Shown one piece after another: positions 9,169 to 45,293 of a DNA stretch of 64,000 bases. The first letter of the stretch is position 1; every line of letters begins with the position of its first letter. The DNA lies in the NCBI GenBank assembly GCA_036782775.1, contig DAIPYJ010000001.1, forward strand, positions 115,404 through 179,403, given 5' to 3'. The notes under the pieces are model-generated. The model was not told the origin of the DNA and did no database searches. It saw nothing but the letters and a program-made list of their open reading frames with translations. This stretch comes from Candidatus Dormiibacterota bacterium. GTDB lineage: Bacteria; Chloroflexota; Dormibacteria; CF-121. The translations under genes and the position numbers were made by a program.

Positions 9169-10533
9169 GTGAAGGAATCGCCCTACTGGAATCCCCGGCA
9201 CGAGACGATGCCGCGTGACCAGATCGAGGCACTGCAGCTGCGCAAGCTCAAGAACCTGCTGGCCTGGACGGAAGCAAAGGTGCCCTGGCAGGGGGAGCGC
9301 CTGCGGAAGGCCGGGGTCACGGCCGGCTCGATCAAGAGCCTGAAGGACTTGCGTCGCATCCCGATGATGACCAGGGACGAATGGATGCAGGCGCAGCTTG
9401 AGAAGCCGCCTTACGGGCCGCTGCTGGCCGCGCCGGAGGAGGTCGCCATCCGTTATCACCTGACCTCAGGAACGACGGGCCGTATTCCACTCCAGGTCCT
9501 GGACTCGATGAAGGACTGGGAATGGATCGCCGAGATGTGGTGCTATGGCTTCTGGGGTTTTGGCGTGCGGCCGGCCGATATCGTCTTCTTCGCCTTCAGT
9601 TACGGCACCTTCGTCGGCTTCTGGGGCGCGCACTATGCCAGTGAGAAGATCGGCTGCCTGGTATTGCCCGGCGGGAACATGACGACCGAAGCGCGCGTCA
9701 AGCAGATCATGACGATGAAGGCGACCGTCGTCTGCTCGACGCCGACCTACGCCTTGCGCATGGCACAGGAGGCGAAGACGATGGGCGTCGACCTCGCCAA
9801 GGGACCGGTCCAGCGCCTGATTCTTTCCGGCGAACCCGCCGGCTCGATTCCCGCCACCAAGCGGCTGATCGAGGAAGAATGGGGCGCGAAGGCCGCGGAC
9901 ACCGCCGGCATGACCGAGGTTGGCACCATCATGATCTTCGAGTGCGCCAAGCAGCCGGGAGGCACCCACATCATCGAGGACCACTACATCGAAGAAGTCG
10001 TCGATCCGGAGAACGGCGAGCCGGTGGGATACGGCGAGCTGGGCGAGCGGCTCATCACCTCCTTTGGGCGCGGCTTCATCCCGGTGCTGCGCTACCGCAC
10101 GCGCGACATGGTGGTCCGGGTCCCGGCCAACACCTGCACCTGCGGCCGCACCTTTGACCTCTACGAGGGTGGGATTCGAGGCCGCGTCGACGACATGAAG
10201 CTGGTGCGCGGCACGAACGTCTACCCGCGTGCGGTGGAGTCGATCGTCCGCGAGTTCAAGCAGATCGACGAATTTCGCATCCACCTCTTCACCGCGGATG
10301 GCCGCCAGGATGAGATCGAGGTGCTGGTCGAGATCCCCGCGAAGGAGGGCGGTGAAGCCGAACGGATCTGCGCCGCCCTGGCCAAGGAGCTCGCCCAGGC
10401 GCACGAAGGTCTCCGTTTTGGCGTCAAGAAGGTCGAGAACGGCAGCCTGCCGCGCTTCGAGCTCAAAGCCAAGCGGCTGCAGGACGATCGGATCGTGATC
10501 GGAACCGCCGGCGAGCGCAGGGTGACGGCATGA
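9169..10533 (+). CDS. phenylacetate-CoA ligase family (PaaK / F390 synthetase-like) adenylate-forming CoA ligase
   Basis: AAGGAGG SD then GTG at 9169. The product has PaaK-family features (TSGTTG, YGxTE...) and is about 454 aa. The first 25 codons of the track ORF are an upstream extension. Confidence 0.75.
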   Translation: MKESPYWNPRHETMPRDQIEALQLRKLKNLLAWTEAKVPWQGERLRKAGVTAGSIKSLKDLRRIPMMTRDEWMQAQLEKPPYGPLLAAPEEVAIRYHLTSGTTGRIPLQVLDSMKDWEWIAEMWCYGFWGFGVRPADIVFFAFSYGTFVGFWGAHYASEKIGCLVLPGGNMTTEARVKQIMTMKATVVCSTPTYALRMAQEAKTMGVDLAKGPVQRLILSGEPAGSIPATKRLIEEEWGAKAADTAGMTEVGTIMIFECAKQPGGTHIIEDHYIEEVVDPENGEPVGYGELGERLITSFGRGFIPVLRYRTRDMVVRVPANTCTCGRTFDLYEGGIRGRVDDMKLVRGTNVYPRAVESIVREFKQIDEFRIHLFTADGRQDEIEVLVEIPAKEGGEAERICAALAKELAQAHEGLRFGVKKVENGSLPRFELKAKRLQDDRIVIGTAGERRVTA

Positions 10534-42008: not shown

Positions 42009-42923
42009 ATGGGAGCCCCGATGGCACGGCCTGAGTACTTCGAAATCCGCGCGAAATCGGCCCTGAATCGCGTCCAGCACATGGGCTTCAACTGGTCGCT
42101 CAATCCCTACCAGGGATGCGTCCACAGCTGCGTCTACTGCTTCGCCCGGGCGCACGCCAAGCTCGGCGACCGCGATCCAGGCGCCGGCTTCTCGACTCGC
42201 ATCGGGGTGAAGGTGAATGCACCCGAGCTGCTTCGCCAGGAGTTATCACGCCGCTCCTGGAAGCGCGAGATGGTGGCCTTCGGCACGGCGACGGATCCGT
42301 ACCAGCCGGTCGAAGGTCGAACGCGGCTGACGCGGCGCTGCCTGGAGGCGCTGCGGGATTTCCGCACCCCGATCGGGCTGATCACCAAAGGGACGATGGT
42401 CTATCGGGACATCGATGTGCTGGTCGAACTGTCGCGCCGGGCGAAGGCCACCGTCACCTTCAGCGTGCCAACGGTGGATCGCGAGGTCTGGGCACGCACG
42501 GAGCCTGGGACTCCTCCACCGGCCAAGCGGTTGAAGGTTTTGAAAGCGCTCGTCGACGCCGGCATCGAAGCCGGCGTTGGCATGGCGCCGATCCTGCCAG
42601 GGCTGTCCGACTCCCGAGCCCAGCTGGAAGCAACGGTTGCGGCCGCGGCCGAAGCCGGCGCCTGTTACGTCTGGTGCAACGTCGTCTACCTGAAGCCCGG
42701 CACGAAAGAACATTTCATGGAGTTTCTGGGGCGCGATTATCCACAGCTCGTGCACAGGTACCAAGAACTCTTCCCGGGGACCGCGGCGTACCTGGCGAAC
42801 ACCGTCAAGGCGCCGATCGTCGAAGCCGTGCGCGACATCAAGCGGCAGCAGGGGGTCGCCGACCGTCGCGCCTGGCGCGTCGAGCCGCCGGCGCAGCCCG
42901 TCCAACTCGGATTGGCGGTCTAG
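42009..42923 (+). CDS. radical SAM protein, spore-photoproduct-lyase / DNA-photolyase-like family (SPL-like)
   Basis: The CxxxCxxC motif reads CVHSCVYC. It is about 300 aa with an SPL-family-like N-terminus. Confidence 0.7.
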   Translation: MGAPMARPEYFEIRAKSALNRVQHMGFNWSLNPYQGCVHSCVYCFARAHAKLGDRDPGAGFSTRIGVKVNAPELLRQELSRRSWKREMVAFGTATDPYQPVEGRTRLTRRCLEALRDFRTPIGLITKGTMVYRDIDVLVELSRRAKATVTFSVPTVDREVWARTEPGTPPPAKRLKVLKALVDAGIEAGVGMAPILPGLSDSRAQLEATVAAAAEAGACYVWCNVVYLKPGTKEHFMEFLGRDYPQLVHRYQELFPGTAAYLANTVKAPIVEAVRDIKRQQGVADRRAWRVEPPAQPVQLGLAV

Positions 42924-42961
42924 TTTGACTTCGAGGCGTCCATGCTCTACCGTAGCCGCGA

Positions 42962-43267
42962 GTGCTCCGCTGGCTGACCCGGCTTTTCCGGCAACGCGAG
43001 GCGGTTGAGACCGCTTCCCAAGCATCGCCAGCCTCCTCGATACCACCAGCAGCCGCGTCCGCCCCTACTGTCCGCGACGCCGGGGCCAACGGCGACAAGT
43101 CGACGACCGAAGGCGTCGCAGTCGCGGCTGTCATCGAGCCCGAGAAGGAAACCTGTCCGACCTGCGGCCGGACGAGCGTATTTGCCGGGCCGCCAGGGCA
43201 GCGCTTCTGCACCTACTGCGCCTTACGCGGCGAGCTCTTTGAGCCGAGCGCCGCGGCGTCCGACTAA
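42962..43267 (+). CDS. small protein with a C-terminal zinc ribbon (CPTCG...CTYC), hypothetical
   Basis: The ORF is 101 aa. The N-terminal half is low-complexity Ala/Ser/Pro and the C-terminus has two CxxC pairs. It lies between the radical SAM and MBL genes. Weak call. Confidence 0.3.
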   Translation: MLRWLTRLFRQREAVETASQASPASSIPPAAASAPTVRDAGANGDKSTTEGVAVAAVIEPEKETCPTCGRTSVFAGPPGQRFCTYCALRGELFEPSAAASD

Positions 43268-43279
43268 GTCGCCGCCACC

Positions 43280-44257
43280 ATGACCAGCTATCCGATCCTC
43301 TGGGATAGCGGCGTCTACCTTCCAGACCTCGAGCTCTGGCTGGACCCGCGGCGGCCTCGACGTCGCGCCGTCATCAGCCACGCGCACGACGACCACGTCG
43401 CGGCGCACCCGCTCGCCTACGCCACACCGGCGACCTGCCGGCTCGTGAACCACCGGCGGCCAACACTCACCACCGTGCAGCCGCTCGATTATGGCGAGAC
43501 ACTGACGCTCGAACGATGCAGCGTCAGCTTCTACCCGGCTGGCCACGTGCTGGGGTCGGCGCAAACGCTGATCGAAAGCGACGCCGGGCGGATCCTCTAT
43601 ACCGGAGACCTCAAGACACGCCGCGGCTTCACCAGCGGGTCGGCGACGCCGGTCAAGGCTGACGTCCTCGTCCTCGAGAGCACCTTCGGCAAGCCTCACT
43701 ATCGGTTTCCCGACGCGAGCGAAGTGATCGCGAACGTCGTGCGCTGGTGCTCGCAGGTGATTGACGGCGGCGCGACGCCGGTGCTCCTCGGGTACTCGCT
43801 GGGCAAGGGCCAGGAGATCCTCTCTGCGCTTGCCGCGGAGGGCTTGGCGATTGCGCTGCACCGGTCGTTATTCGGTGTCACGGATGTGTATCGAGAGCTG
43901 GGCTGTTCTTTTCCCGACTACCAGCTGCTCGACGGCGTGGTAGGAGGGCCAACCGTCGCCATCATCCCACCGACGGCTCGCCGCGACGGGCTTCGCGACT
44001 GGCTTGGTGAGTTCCAGACCGCCTCCCTCACCGGCTGGGCGATGGACGCGAGCCTGAAAGAGCGGCTGGATGTCGACGCAACCTTTCCCCTATCCGACCA
44101 CGCCGACTTCGAGGAGCTCTGTTGTTACGCCGAGGCGGTGGGTGCAGAGCTCACCTACACCGTGCTGGGTTTCGACGAAGAGCTCGCCATGCACCTGCGG
44201 CGGCGCGGCCTTCGCGCCAAAGCACTCGCCTCGGTTGATCAACTGCGTCTCTTCTGA
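43280..44257 (+). CDS. MBL-fold metallo-hydrolase (ligase-associated DNA-damage-response exonuclease-like / beta-CASP-like)
   Basis: Carries the HAHDDH metal motif (VISHAHDDH), 325 aa. Confidence 0.7.
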   Translation: MTSYPILWDSGVYLPDLELWLDPRRPRRRAVISHAHDDHVAAHPLAYATPATCRLVNHRRPTLTTVQPLDYGETLTLERCSVSFYPAGHVLGSAQTLIESDAGRILYTGDLKTRRGFTSGSATPVKADVLVLESTFGKPHYRFPDASEVIANVVRWCSQVIDGGATPVLLGYSLGKGQEILSALAAEGLAIALHRSLFGVTDVYRELGCSFPDYQLLDGVVGGPTVAIIPPTARRDGLRDWLGEFQTASLTGWAMDASLKERLDVDATFPLSDHADFEELCCYAEAVGAELTYTVLGFDEELAMHLRRRGLRAKALASVDQLRLF

Positions 44258-44360
44258 ACGCGAATCTGCAAGTTCGTTTTGGACTCGCCGTTATGCCGGA
44301 TAAGCGCTCGCCGATGCGTGCGCAGCGGTTCGCCGCTCACGCAACAAGGAGGTGACGCGA

Positions 44361-44423
44361 ATGGCAACGCGGAAGAAGGCCACCAAGAAGGCGGCCCGGA
44401 AGTCGACTCGGAAGAGCCGCTAA
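44361..44423 (+). CDS. tiny basic peptide ORF (20 aa: MATRKKATKKAARKSTRKSR)
   Basis: A perfect SD (AAGGAGGTG at 44346-44354) sits 6 nt upstream of the ATG. The ORF ends with TAA 15 nt before a strong intrinsic terminator. It is a stand-alone unit between a + gene and convergent - genes. Confidence 0.4.
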   Translation: MATRKKATKKAARKSTRKSR

Positions 44424-44438
44424 CCAGCGGTCATCAGA

Positions 44439-44471
44439 GGGGCCCTCGACGCGAGGGCCCCTTTTCGTTTT
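44439..44471. terminator. Rho-independent terminator (GGGGCCCTCG-acg-CGAGGGCCCC followed by TTTTCGTTTT), likely bidirectional
   Basis: A 10-bp perfect GC-rich stem is followed by a T-tract on the + strand. It lies between the tiny ORF (+) and the 3' end of the minus-strand membrane protein gene (44473). Confidence 0.6.
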
Positions 44472-44472
44472 A

Positions 44473-44838
44473 TTACGACGTGGTCAGCGCACGAATCGCC
44501 AGCCCCGCCATGAAGAGACCCGCGATTCCGTAGACGAGAGACTGCCGGCGCTCGTCCCGACCACTCGTGTAGGTGGCGGCGATCGGCAGAACGATCACGA
44601 GCAGGATGCCGTACAACCAGTGCAGCGTGTCGTGCGGCCGGCGACCCCCGAGAAACAGCGTGGCGCCGACCAACCCCTGCACGATGAAGACCGCCTCGAC
44701 CAGCACCAGCGCGGAGTTGAAGGTGCCTCCTGGCGGCAGCCGCCGGGCAAAGTTCGTGAAGCCCCACACCGCCACCACCAGCGTGAGCACCAACCCGGCG
44801 AAGAAGAGACCGCGGTGGACGGACACAACCAGGCTCAT
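44473..44838 (-). CDS. integral membrane protein (4 TM helices), hypothetical
   Basis: 121 aa and hydrophobic. It overlaps the upstream NUDIX gene by 4 nt (ATGA). Confidence 0.5.
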   Translation of the reverse strand: MSLVVSVHRGLFFAGLVLTLVVAVWGFTNFARRLPPGGTFNSALVLVEAVFIVQGLVGATLFLGGRRPHDTLHWLYGILLVIVLPIAATYTSGRDERRQSLVYGIAGLFMAGLAIRALTTS

Positions 44839-45293
44839 GACGCGACCGGCTGAGCCGCGAGCTGGGCGATTGCCGCCTGGAGCGTTTCGCGCGCGTTTTT
44901 GAAGCTGATCGTCTCGGCGGCCGCCGCCGTGGAGAACCAGCGCGTCTCTTCGATTTCTGAGGGCTGTGGCCGTAACACGGCCCGTCCCGTCAGCTCGACA
45001 AGGAAGTAATGGACCCGCTTGAAGATCAGCCCGCGGCCCCAGCGAAAGGCGTAATCGACATCCGGCAGCTGTCCGACGACGCGCAGGAACTCCTGCGGCA
45101 ATCCGGTTTCCTCGGCGATCTCGCGCAGCGCTGTCACCGCCGGCGACTCGTCTCGCTCGATGGTTCCCTTGGGGAAGCTCCAGCGGCCGGCGGCTTTGAT
45201 CAAGAGGACCTCGAGGCCGGCTGCCGTCCGGCGGAATACAACGCCTCCAGCTGAGACCTCCCGGCGGGCGGGGCTTCGTTGTGCGGCGGGCAT
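44835..45293 (-). CDS. NUDIX hydrolase
   Basis: Carries the Nudix box GTIERDESPAVTALREIAEETGL (GX5EX7REUXEEXGU). Confidence 0.8.
   Translation of the reverse strand: MPAAQRSPARREVSAGGVVFRRTAAGLEVLLIKAAGRWSFPKGTIERDESPAVTALREIAEETGLPQEFLRVVGQLPDVDYAFRWGRGLIFKRVHYFLVELTGRAVLRPQPSEIEETRWFSTAAAAETISFKNARETLQAAIAQLAAQPVAS

Follow-up and report, generated by a model that had tools for sequence, protein, structure and literature searches.

The window analyzed here, a 64-kb stretch of DNA from a member of Candidatus Dormiibacterota, very probably carries a real and conserved micro-gene that is probably translated. Its 20-residue product would most likely bind RNA or the ribosome, as a small protein of the kind that annotation pipelines miss. 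The compact unit (Table 1) is inherited vertically across Candidatus Dormiibacterota, changes by substitutions of the coding type, and is not followed by a gene on the same strand.

Table 1. Position and layout of the micro-gene features in the window.
Feature	Coordinates	Strand	Description
Promoter-like block	44264..44294	+	ATCTGCAAGwTCGTTTTGGACnnnnCGTTAT; −35-like CTGCAA (44266-71), 17-nt spacer, −10-like CGTTAT (44289-94)
Leader hairpin P1	44304..44323	+	GCGC.C ... G.GCGC; GCGCAC/GUGCGC in most relatives; loop variable
Near-invariant 3′ leader	44325..44360	+	GCGGTTCGCCGCTCACGC(A/G)A(C/T)AAGGAGGTGACGC; contains the Shine–Dalgarno sequence AAGGAGGTGA (44346-55)
Micro-ORF	44361..44423	+	20 codons plus TAA (44421-23), encoding MATRKKATKKAARKSTRKSR; 2.3 kDa, pI 12, net charge ∼+9.5
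Stop-codon hairpin	44416..44431	+	GCCGCU / loop AACC / AGCGGU; the 5′ arm ends with the U of UAA
Intrinsic terminator	44436..44472	+	13-bp stem with 3-nt loop (44436-64), followed by the T-tract

Results

Reading frame and translation signals

The micro-ORF, as read from the window, starts at ATG 44361 and comprises 20 sense codons. Lys and Arg account for 10 of the 20 residues (the first-pass annotation had counted 11); acidic residues are absent, and after Met1 no hydrophobic residue is larger than Ala. The small residues (Ala, Thr, and Ser) gather on one helical face, with a moment of 0.40 compared with 0.21 in permutations (p ∼0.05). A test for a type I toxin or membrane micro-protein was negative, the peptide having no hydrophobic transmembrane segment. 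Ahead of the ORF lies AAGGAGGTG (44346-44354), and perfect complementarity to the anti-Shine–Dalgarno (SD) sequence even runs on to 44355, yielding AAGGAGGTGA. This motif, which occurs in perfect form only twice in the window, is 6–8 nt away from the start codon, and its mean predicted unpaired probability is 0.61. The SD sequence, the start codon, and the length of the ORF were thus found as the first-pass annotation had described them. The GC-rich core of a hairpin with T-tract, which it had placed 15 nt past the stop codon, is also there, within a longer stem of 13 bp. GC content around the micro-gene is ∼63–68% (the first-pass annotation had given 68% for the genome).

Two other start sites were considered and rejected. 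GTG 44352 lies inside the SD sequence and is in frame in the window genome only, owing to a 2-nt insertion, but out of frame in the relatives; hence, ATG 44361 is taken as the start. An 84-codon ORF beginning with TTG and extending across the unit (44279-44533) is not credible because the indels in leader and terminator are not multiples of three. When the window was shuffled 300 times with preservation of dinucleotides, ORFs of 12–40 codons preceded by GGAGG, starting with ATG, and containing at least 45% Lys/Arg were expected at 0.02 per window; the real window contains exactly one. Across all six frames, the micro-ORF is also the only small Lys-rich basic ORF.

Conservation and coding signature

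The first-pass annotation had suggested looking for the peptide in related genomes. The whole unit was present at the same locus in all of the related Candidatus Dormiibacterota genomes recovered (35/35), and additionally in three metagenome contigs. Alignments and counts given below refer to 36 loci, that is, the window locus plus these 35 relatives. The protein encoded next to it, of the MBL/β-CASP type, is 67–79% identical across the relatives, and the third codon positions of its gene are 56% identical. Relatives of this MBL gene from other phyla (L036-L058) are not accompanied by such a basic ORF. An exact look-up of the MBL protein itself returned no record.

Within Candidatus Dormiibacterota, position, start, stop, SD sequence, and terminator are retained at every one of the 36 loci, and both the ATG and the reading frame are unchanged. 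The ORF has either 19 or 20 codons throughout, with nine peptide variants encoded by 24 distinct coding sequences. Variable columns are distributed 4/3/10 over the three codon positions, and dN/dS is ∼0.15. Ten codons vary solely at the third position, and every one of these changes is synonymous. Amino acid replacements are limited to four codons (R/K/T, T/P/V/G, K/R, and S/A), while 15 positions are invariant, among them the non-basic T3, A7, T16, and S19. The stop codon switches between TAA and TAG, and the sole indel is one in-frame codon (3 nt). Conserved start, frame, and stop, mostly synonymous change, and an in-frame indel are what a translated small ORF displays. Above all, the conservation of the unit in 35/35 related genomes decisively shows the micro-gene to be more than a chance occurrence. 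Thus, the earlier proposals that a stand-alone, unannotated gene is present and that its features are unlikely to have arisen by chance (0.02 expected vs one found) were borne out. An ORF arising by chance between genes, next to an SD-like sequence and a neighbor's terminator, is effectively refuted by the same conservation data: short ORFs are indeed common in GC-rich DNA, and the terminator alone would be unremarkable (see below), but all features are kept in 36/36 loci while flanking neutral sites are near saturation.

The third positions of the ORF are 86% identical, compared with 56% in the adjacent gene. Such constraint goes beyond simple coding and, together with the near-identity of the 36 nt before the ATG, would fit an RNA operator, strong selection on the codons of a highly expressed gene, or both.

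Promoter-like block, leader, and terminator

Three features had not been part of the first-pass annotation: the promoter-like block, the structured leader with its near-invariant sequence, and the hairpin across the stop codon. Mean pairwise identity of the promoter-like block is 0.90 over the 36 loci, while the stretch separating it from the stop codon of the upstream gene differs between loci in both sequence and length (L001, for example, has a ∼50-nt insertion). Measured against the σ70 consensus, CTGCAA-N17-CGTTAT is weak (6/12 positions, no −11 A), and it was not called by the promoter scan. In geometry, however, it matches the canonical TTGACA-N17-CAATAT promoters that precede analogous mini-genes of other lineages at the corresponding position (see below). 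The block may act as a promoter that would supply the transcription start and make the micro-gene an independent transcription unit. LexA, RDRM, and ECF-type readings of the block were considered, and no convincing match to any of them is known.

Hairpin P1 is predicted for most of the 36 sequences despite changes in sequence and length of its loop, regional identity being only 0.63; in about nine loci, where the 3′ arm was lost during sequence extraction, it was not cleanly recovered. The opposite holds for the 36 nt preceding the ATG, which have a mean pairwise identity of 0.987 (minimum 0.91) vs 0.56 at the third positions of the adjacent gene. Predictions have this 3′ leader pair with codons 2 and 3 in a long hairpin whose apical loop presents the SD core, while the AUG lies in an internal loop. 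The pairing shows almost no covariation, owing to the invariance of the leader (a single pair with two compensatory, one wobble, and two mismatched sequences). The region as a whole has a better predicted fold than its shuffled versions (z = −2.8). The leader segment GCGGUU...UCAC may resemble the 3′ end of 16S rRNA. A second copy, or origin from a repeat element, was discarded because the leader is single-copy and confined to the Dormiibacterota loci.

Most of the 36 sequences are predicted to fold into the hairpin spanning the stop codon, in register and pair variants that include GCCGCU/AGUGGC, GCCGC/GCGGC, and GCCG/CGGC; a few (L001, L004, L012, and L032) have a minimum-energy fold with other pairings for this stretch. 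The terminator scan matched 44436-44464 (13 pairs, nine of them G-C, loop of 3), followed by TCGTTTTATT; with one found vs 0.9 expected, this count is not significant alone. A strong hairpin is nevertheless present 3′ of the ORF in 36/36 loci, usually followed by a T-rich tract. The stem sequences differ (regional identity only 0.69), and paired columns change in a compensatory manner, for example, G-C in 22 and A-U in nine sequences, or C-G in 25 and G-C in six. GC-rich hairpin, U-tract, and conserved structure are those of an intrinsic terminator. Across the whole window, Rfam 15 yielded nothing at gathering score, and over the terminator there were only sub-threshold chance matches.

Genomic neighborhood

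For ∼3 kb downstream, there is no gene on the same strand; the next genes are convergent, on the minus strand, and the stop codon of the nearest one (44473-75) abuts the T-tract. The unit is therefore not an attenuator leader of the classic type, as the first-pass annotation had argued. Neighbors in Candidatus Dormiibacterota are DNA-repair-like (an Rv2578c-family radical SAM protein, an MBL protein resembling ligase-associated exonucleases, and a NUDIX protein), and linkage to translation genes is absent. Around analogous mini-genes in other lineages, the neighbors are mixed (thiolase, hydantoinase B, MerR, S41 peptidase, and, in one case, an AddA-like helicase-nuclease), and the genes that follow are convergent or unrelated. 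Since neighborhoods vary by lineage, the DNA-repair context is probably coincidental, and a functional linkage through gene neighborhood is rejected.

Searches for related peptides

Neither Pfam nor NCBIfam, ribosomal-protein families included, contained a match to the peptide at E-values up to 0.1 or up to 10. The models for bL37, bTHX, bL34, and bL36 likewise gave zero families, a result that still allows distant homology to these four proteins, given the poor sensitivity of HMMs for a low-complexity query of 20 residues. The best phmmer matches in the PDB were histone H3 tails (E ∼3, not significant), while a check query with bS22 recovered bS22 and mS38 chains, which are thus present in the copy searched. 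The 20-residue peptide was not among 15 billion stored protein sequences, and no description of these peptide strings, or of lysine-rich unannotated small proteins like these, was found in the literature.

A metagenome scan, on the other hand, revealed many mini-genes of 12–27 codons encoding oligolysine peptides ("MATKKKA...") in the same architecture. They are apparent relatives only, and the range of apparent relatives of the peptide extends from 12 to 42 residues. One of them, L086 (MATKKKAAKKAKKATKKKK; 19 residues), resides in a different genomic context and is identical at 14 of 19 positions, the others being R to K; its codons, leader, and terminator differ from those of the Dormiibacterota unit. 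The N-terminal pattern MAT(K/A)KKA(A/T)KK also occurred on K/A-rich and K-rich SWIB-like proteins of 30–150 residues. Eight longer analogues had no match in NCBIfam or Pfam (a lone SNARE line for one of them, with an E-value of 9.6, is noise), 18 analogous loci contained nothing but tRNAs at the gathering score of Rfam, and 10 members of at least 20 residues were all missing (0/10) from the 15 billion stored sequences.

It is conceivable, if doubtful, that the Dormiibacterota gene represents one branch of an unrecognized and widespread class of dedicated, strongly expressed oligolysine mini-genes whose products are genetically encoded oligocations. Such a class, which on this doubtful reading would go unreported by current gene callers, would be defined by a "MATKKKA..." ORF of 12–27 codons, preceded by a canonical promoter and by ∼100 nt of leader in which a hairpin adjoins the SD sequence, and followed by a hairpin past the stop codon and a terminator. 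The products could be the smallest known ribosomal or RNA-bound proteins, or could play the part of polyamines while being made on the ribosome.

Discussion

The explanation that we tentatively prefer is an independent unit of ∼170–210 nt, consisting of promoter-like block, structured leader, maximal SD sequence, ORF of 19–20 codons, stop-codon hairpin, and intrinsic terminator, the translated polycationic peptide of which would bind RNA, most likely the ribosome, with the leader serving as translational operator. Translation of the ORF would yield a peptide of 2.2–2.3 kDa with a net charge of ∼+9.5. This peptide would be the selected product and, most probably, a sequence-specific polycationic RNA ligand. 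The ribosome would be its most likely target, where it may fill an rRNA pocket, as do bS22/eL41, bL37, bTHX, and bS24. The near-invariant hairpin presenting SD sequence and start codon would then be the operator through which synthesis of the peptide is controlled, by feedback or otherwise. As the peptide matches nothing in Pfam, NCBIfam, or the PDB, we infer ribosome or nucleic-acid binding from its size, its charge, its expression signals, and precedent. Against a ribosomal role speaks that the peptide has no similarity to bS22, to another ribosomal protein, or to a PDB chain. To our knowledge, a peptide of 19–20 residues is shorter than every known ribosomal protein. Further points against this reading are the missing packing residues of bS22, eL41, and bTHX (see below), the near-absence of covariation in the leader pairing, and the lack of linkage to translation genes.

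If translated, the peptide might instead be a general counter-ion of DNA or of the nucleoid, a minimal protamine-like or histone-H1-like protein that condenses or protects DNA, possibly in dormancy or in DNA-damage tolerance. We regard this as unlikely, although several observations are in its favor. Composition and AKK/KKA spacing are like those of the Lys/Ala-rich, H1-like proteins of bacteria; the N-terminal pattern is shared with the longer K/A-rich and SWIB-like proteins; the sole resemblance in the PDB, albeit not significant, is to histone H3 tails; and DNA-repair-like genes are neighbors in Candidatus Dormiibacterota, as is the helicase-nuclease in another lineage. The spread of the apparent relatives, which range from 12 to over 40 residues, is also easier to reconcile with a generic polycation than with a fixed rRNA pocket. 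However, low-complexity DNA-binding tails usually evolve fast, whereas the micro-ORF product, with its 15 invariant positions, has hardly changed in length or sequence; the neighborhoods are lineage-dependent; and the invariant translational leader would be left unexplained.

Less likely still is that the RNA is the functional product, either as an sRNA or as a dual-function RNA, with the invariant leader and the purine-rich AAG repeats binding an RNA chaperone or a target. On this reading, the ORF would be translated only incidentally, or only as a means of controlling the RNA. The most conserved segment is indeed non-coding (98.7% identity over the 36 nt before the ATG), synonymous sites of the ORF are unusually conserved (0.86 vs 0.56), and the length of ∼170–210 nt, the 5′ hairpins, the intrinsic terminator, and the better-than-shuffled fold are all typical of, or compatible with, an sRNA. 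In addition, the Lys codons of the micro-ORF form A-R-N triplet repeats, a kind of repeat known to be bound by Hfq. Yet, the invariant ATG, the perfect SD sequence at optimal spacing, the exchange of TAA for TAG, the in-frame indel, and the excess of third-position changes all point to translation. Moreover, the peptide pattern is retained across lineages while leader, codons, and terminator are replaced, and no Rfam family was found in the window or in the 18 analogous loci.

A leader peptide sensing Lys or Arg, with ribosome stalling that governs terminator read-through (which here would run antisense into the convergent genes), is very improbable. It would account for the run of Lys/Arg codons and for the two hairpins within 13 nt after the ORF, the second of which is the terminator. 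Against it, there is no same-strand gene to be regulated, the nearest convergent gene ends at the T-tract, inspection of consensus and single-sequence folds revealed no alternative antiterminator pairing of stop-codon hairpin and terminator, and the analogous mini-genes elsewhere precede convergent or unrelated genes.

Tiny basic ribosomal proteins change the way in which the ribosome encounters antibiotics and mRNAs, and bS22, bL37, bL38, and bS24 are not known to have been discovered other than through solved ribosome structures. In the present case, comparative genomics alone picked out a candidate for such a gene, in a soil phylum without a cultured member; the organism itself is known solely from metagenome-assembled genomes. 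Exact sequences are at hand for synthesis and testing, for example, MATRKKATKKAKKSTRKSR. Should the RNA-binding peptide that we favor prove ribosomal, no shorter ribosomal protein would be known, and translation in Dormiibacterota would have a new marker; should it be a general oligocation, it would amount to a gene-encoded neutralization of nucleic-acid charge. The near-invariant leader is a candidate for a new translational operator. Judging by the wider "MATKKKA" class, genes of fewer than 30 codons may form an entire category that is systematically absent from protein databases.

Comparison with known systems

Among characterized proteins, bS22 is an AURKAIP1/COX24-type small ribosomal protein of mycobacteria, Bacteroidota, and Borrelia, analogous to eL41 and mS38, which occupies the pocket of 16S helices h2/h27/h44/h45 in the 30S subunit. 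Like the Dormiibacterota peptide, it is tiny, highly basic, encoded by a stand-alone gene, and missed by annotation; bS22 itself, at 30–33 residues, is a single helix in an rRNA pocket. In Borrelia, bS22 (61% Lys/Arg) was unannotated until cryo-EM revealed it, and the authors predict further bacterial occurrences (PMC10618245). The Dormiibacterota peptide, in contrast, has no sequence match to bS22, is a third shorter, is dominated in the relatives by Lys rather than Arg, and lacks the Met/Leu/His positions of bS22. More generally, bS22, eL41, and bTHX pack via Met, Leu, or aromatic residues, which the Dormiibacterota peptide does not have.

The proteins bL37 (mycobacteria) and bTHX (Thermus, chloroplasts) fall into the range of 20–30 residues, and bS24 is cyanobacterial; we know of no report of a near-invariant, SD-presenting leader for any of the three. 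They resemble the peptide in being lineage-restricted, basic ribosomal proteins or helices, and differ in that no similarity to it is detectable via NCBIfam/Pfam models or PDB chains. All three were discovered through structure determination rather than annotation (PMC10618245; bioRxiv 10.64898/2026.07.03.736309), and bS24 is a single-helix protein adjoining the anti-SD sequence (bioRxiv 10.64898/2026.07.03.736309).

Attenuation leader peptides (such as trpL, hisL, and pheL) likewise come from a short ORF in which codons of a single class abound, with SD sequence, hairpin, and intrinsic terminator, but the Dormiibacterota unit has neither a regulated downstream gene nor, in the folds inspected, an antiterminator alternative. 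Histone-H1-like Lys/Ala-rich nucleoid proteins, finally (for example, the "histone H1" of Bacteroidota, chlamydial Hc1, and the tail of mycobacterial HupB), are similar to the peptide in composition and AKK/KKA spacing. These proteins are, however, much longer, repetitive, and fast-evolving, whereas the Dormiibacterota peptide has 19–20 residues and a non-repetitive C terminus (S/A-T-R-K-S-R), and is almost invariant as a whole.

Conservation of the ORF among Dormiibacterota

The SD, the start codon, the 20-codon ORF, and the downstream hairpin with its T-tract are present in the window as the first-pass annotation had described them, except that Lys and Arg make up 10, not 11, of the 20 residues. 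The T-tract is abutted by the stop codon (44473-75) of a convergent 121-codon ORF. A GTG (44352) sits within the SD and is in frame only in the window genome, because a 2-nt insertion precedes the ATG there. The extended form of this SD, perfectly complementary to the 16S 3′ end over one further base, recurs once elsewhere in the window (10055-10064, minus strand), where it appears to lie within a longer reading frame and not ahead of a gene. From 300 dinucleotide-preserving shuffles, 0.02 SD-led ORFs 12-40 codons long and containing ≥45% K/R are expected per 64-kb window; the real window contains exactly one. The terminator scan taken alone was at chance level. By itself, before conservation was considered, the pattern was unusual, not overwhelming.

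Relatives were retrieved via the upstream MBL gene (one genome per species), which yielded 35 close relatives, all taken to be Dormiibacterota (formerly AD3), with MBL proteins 67-79% identical. A 19- or 20-codon ORF with the same SD follows the MBL gene at a distance of ∼110 nt in 35/35 of them; the first-pass proposal of a genuine small gene thus withstood comparison with related genomes. Three further copies of the unit were found in metagenome contigs, and no comparable ORF accompanied the MBL homologues of other phyla (L036-L058). As the unit is single-copy in every locus examined, its identity as a repeat element was rejected.

The aligned ORFs comprise 24 distinct DNA sequences encoding nine peptide variants, with an invariant ATG. 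Variable columns number 4, 3, and 10 at codon positions 1, 2, and 3, respectively; ten codons vary at the third position only, every such change being synonymous, and replacements are confined to four codons (R/K/T, T/P/V/G, K/R, and S/A; mean dN/dS ∼0.15). The stop alternates between TAA and TAG, and lengths differ only by a single in-frame Ala codon. Judged from the alignment, these substitutions follow the pattern of protein-coding DNA. A 19-residue relative in another genomic context (metagenome locus L086; MATKKKAAKKAKKATKKKK) is identical at 14/19 positions, K standing in for R at others, despite different codons, leader, and terminator, which suggests that the peptide is what is conserved. 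Identity at ORF third positions is 0.86, far above the neutral 0.56, so some additional constraint, on the RNA or on codon usage, must be at work. These comparisons make it very likely that a conserved, probably translated micro-gene exists here.

Features of the peptide gene and its surroundings (window positions)
Feature	Position	Strand	Details
ORF of 586 codons	40205-41965	-	ETF and ETF-alpha FAD-binding domains
Radical SAM, Rv2578c family	42009-42923		DNA-repair-like neighbor
MBL/beta-CASP protein	43280-44257		Resembles ligase-associated exonuclease family, below its cut-off (217.7 bits versus 325)
Promoter-like block	44264-94	+	ATCTGCAAGwTCGTTTTGGACnnnnCGTTAT, 31 nt; mean pairwise identity 0.90; conservation begins abruptly here
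Hairpin P1	after promoter-like block	+	GCGCAC...GUGCGC; variable loop; regional identity 0.63
Near-invariant leader segment	44325-44360	+	36 nt up to ATG; 98.7% identity across 36 loci
SD	44346-54	+	AAGGAGGTG; perfect 16S 3′-end complement one base longer, AAGGAGGTGA
Peptide ORF	ATG 44361; TAA 44421-23	+	20 sense codons, MATRKKATKKAARKSTRKSR
Stop-codon hairpin	44416-44431	+	GCCGCU/AGCGGU, 5-6 bp; 5′ arm is last codons plus U of stop
Terminator hairpin	44436-64	+	Terminator scan: 13 pairs (9 G-C), 3-nt loop, then TCGTTTTATT
MutT-like NUDIX	44835-45293	-	DNA-repair-like neighbor

RNA anatomy of the unit

The spacer ahead of the promoter-like block varies in sequence and length (∼50 extra nt in the relative L001), so the block belongs to the peptide unit and not to the upstream gene. 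It has 6-17-6 geometry (CTGCAA-N17-CGTTAT). Because its sequence matches sigma-70 poorly and a promoter scan made no call, we infer, rather than assign, a promoter function. Folding predictions pair the 36-nt leader segment with codons 2-3 in a long hairpin whose apical loop contains the SD core (GGAGG is unpaired with a mean probability of 0.61) and whose internal loop contains the AUG. As the neutral yardstick, the adjacent MBL gene is 56% identical at third codon positions. This pairing is beyond a covariation test because there is almost no variation: the sole informative pair shows two compensatory, one wobble, and two mismatched sequences. The excess conservation of leader and ORF third positions could reflect codon bias, an operator, or mimicry of rRNA.

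The stop-codon hairpin is predicted in most of the 36 loci, with variants in register and pairs; analogous mini-genes of other lineages also have a hairpin directly 3′ of the stop. The terminator stem varies in sequence among genomes (regional identity 0.69) with pairing always kept, including compensatory columns (e.g., G-C in 22 sequences, A-U in 9). A classic attenuator leader, already disfavored in the first-pass annotation, was rejected: no same-strand gene follows for ∼3 kb. Predicted folds revealed no antiterminator alternative pairing.

A wider class of oligolysine mini-genes

No Rfam family matched the unit and no Pfam or NCBIfam model the peptide, whose 20-residue form is absent from ∼15 billion predicted proteins; nothing matching the gene was found in the family libraries, protein collection, or literature searched. 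JGI metagenome contigs were scanned for the back-translated N-terminus M-A-T-x-K-K-A-x-K-K, with at least 121 matches. Among the 121 listed, 68 are ORFs of ≤27 codons, and of these 68 listed, 67 have ≥45% K/R, 62 an SD, and 61 a hairpin and T-tract no more than 110 nt away; all three features coincide in 55 of the 121 matches listed. In viral contigs, used as a control, the same pattern gave 1/104 matches with all three, and almost all were N-termini of ordinary proteins.

The mini-genes (e.g., MATKKKAKKKKH, MATKKKAKKKKKH, MATKKKAAKKTTKKKAAKK, and MATKKKAAKKKKH; loci among L059-L178 such as L124:3045-3083(-), L116:7188-7226(+), L073:3064-3105(+), and L090:6362-6421(-)) split into several conserved groups. 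In each, a canonical promoter (TTGACA-N17-CAATAT or TTGACT-N17-TATACA) lies ∼100-125 nt upstream, and a structured leader has a hairpin adjoining the SD; where peptides are identical their codons vary synonymously, length changes are in-frame only, and a post-stop hairpin and intrinsic terminator follow. The mini-genes checked gave no match in Rfam, Pfam, or NCBIfam, and none of the looked-up peptides of ≥20 residues was in the protein collection. As the query itself imposed the shared pattern and low complexity marks the sequences, homology of these groups with the Dormiibacterota gene is plausible but unproven.

On the minus strand of a 56% GC contig (L104), a 42-codon ORF from position 768 of the reverse complement encodes MATTKKATKKAAAKKAAKKTSKSAAKKKAGAKKAAKKATKSR, which has the first 11 residues and C-terminal KSR in common with a single Dormiibacterota variant. 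This protein may be a relative that expanded internally, and so a link between the micro-peptide and longer proteins rich in Lys and Ala. A 32-residue phage ORF, MATKKKA(T/V)KKK...DPVMEALRKPVKI, recurs in some dozen viral contigs of low GC (L184, L187, L200, L230, and others) and in metagenome locus L068. Its product is small and basic, apart from a conserved C-terminus that is non-basic, and appears unrelated to the class.

The peptide gene lies amid DNA-repair-like genes (42009-45293), and in another lineage an AddA-like helicase-nuclease lies convergent to a mini-gene (L087, L124). As neighbors are unrelated from one mini-gene group to another, this context is probably coincidence. Farther upstream, the 586-codon ORF has its domains solely in residues 267-541; its N-terminal ∼260 residues have no Pfam match, and it could be a fusion or have an over-extended TTG start.

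Possible function of the peptide

The peptide (2.2-2.3 kDa, pI 12, net charge ∼+9.5) has no acidic residues and no large hydrophobics after Met1; if it forms a helix, its small residues would line one face, with marginal statistics (p about 0.05). We infer, tentatively and by analogy, that the peptide is translated and binds RNA as a polycation, most probably in association with the ribosome, and that the leader serves as its translational operator. Against ribosome association, homology to any known ribosomal protein is lacking, such shortness is unprecedented, packing residues are absent, and apparent relatives vary widely in length. A protamine-like or H1-like nucleoid counter-ion is a rather unlikely alternative. 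No PDB chain matched; the best hits, histone H3 tails (E about 3), echo the composition of the KAARKS motif. The leader segment exceeds the ORF in conservation (98.7% versus 0.92 identity), and the ORF varies as coding sequence does; an RNA-centred function has a slim chance. The remaining probability falls to other peptide functions, none specified.

The ribosome-associated reading is ranked first because the unit resembles lineage-specific ribosomal micro-proteins in its maximal SD, its own terminator, its near-fixed length and sequence, and its near-invariant start-site hairpin. bS22 (sequence confirmed by PDB query) has 30-33 residues, is 61% K/R in Borrelia, where it had gone unannotated, and is explicitly predicted in more bacteria (PMC10618245). 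The newly named bS24 is a single helix adjoining the anti-SD (bioRxiv 10.64898/2026.07.03.736309) and, together with bL37 and bTHX, is a further lineage-specific ribosome micro-protein resembling this case.
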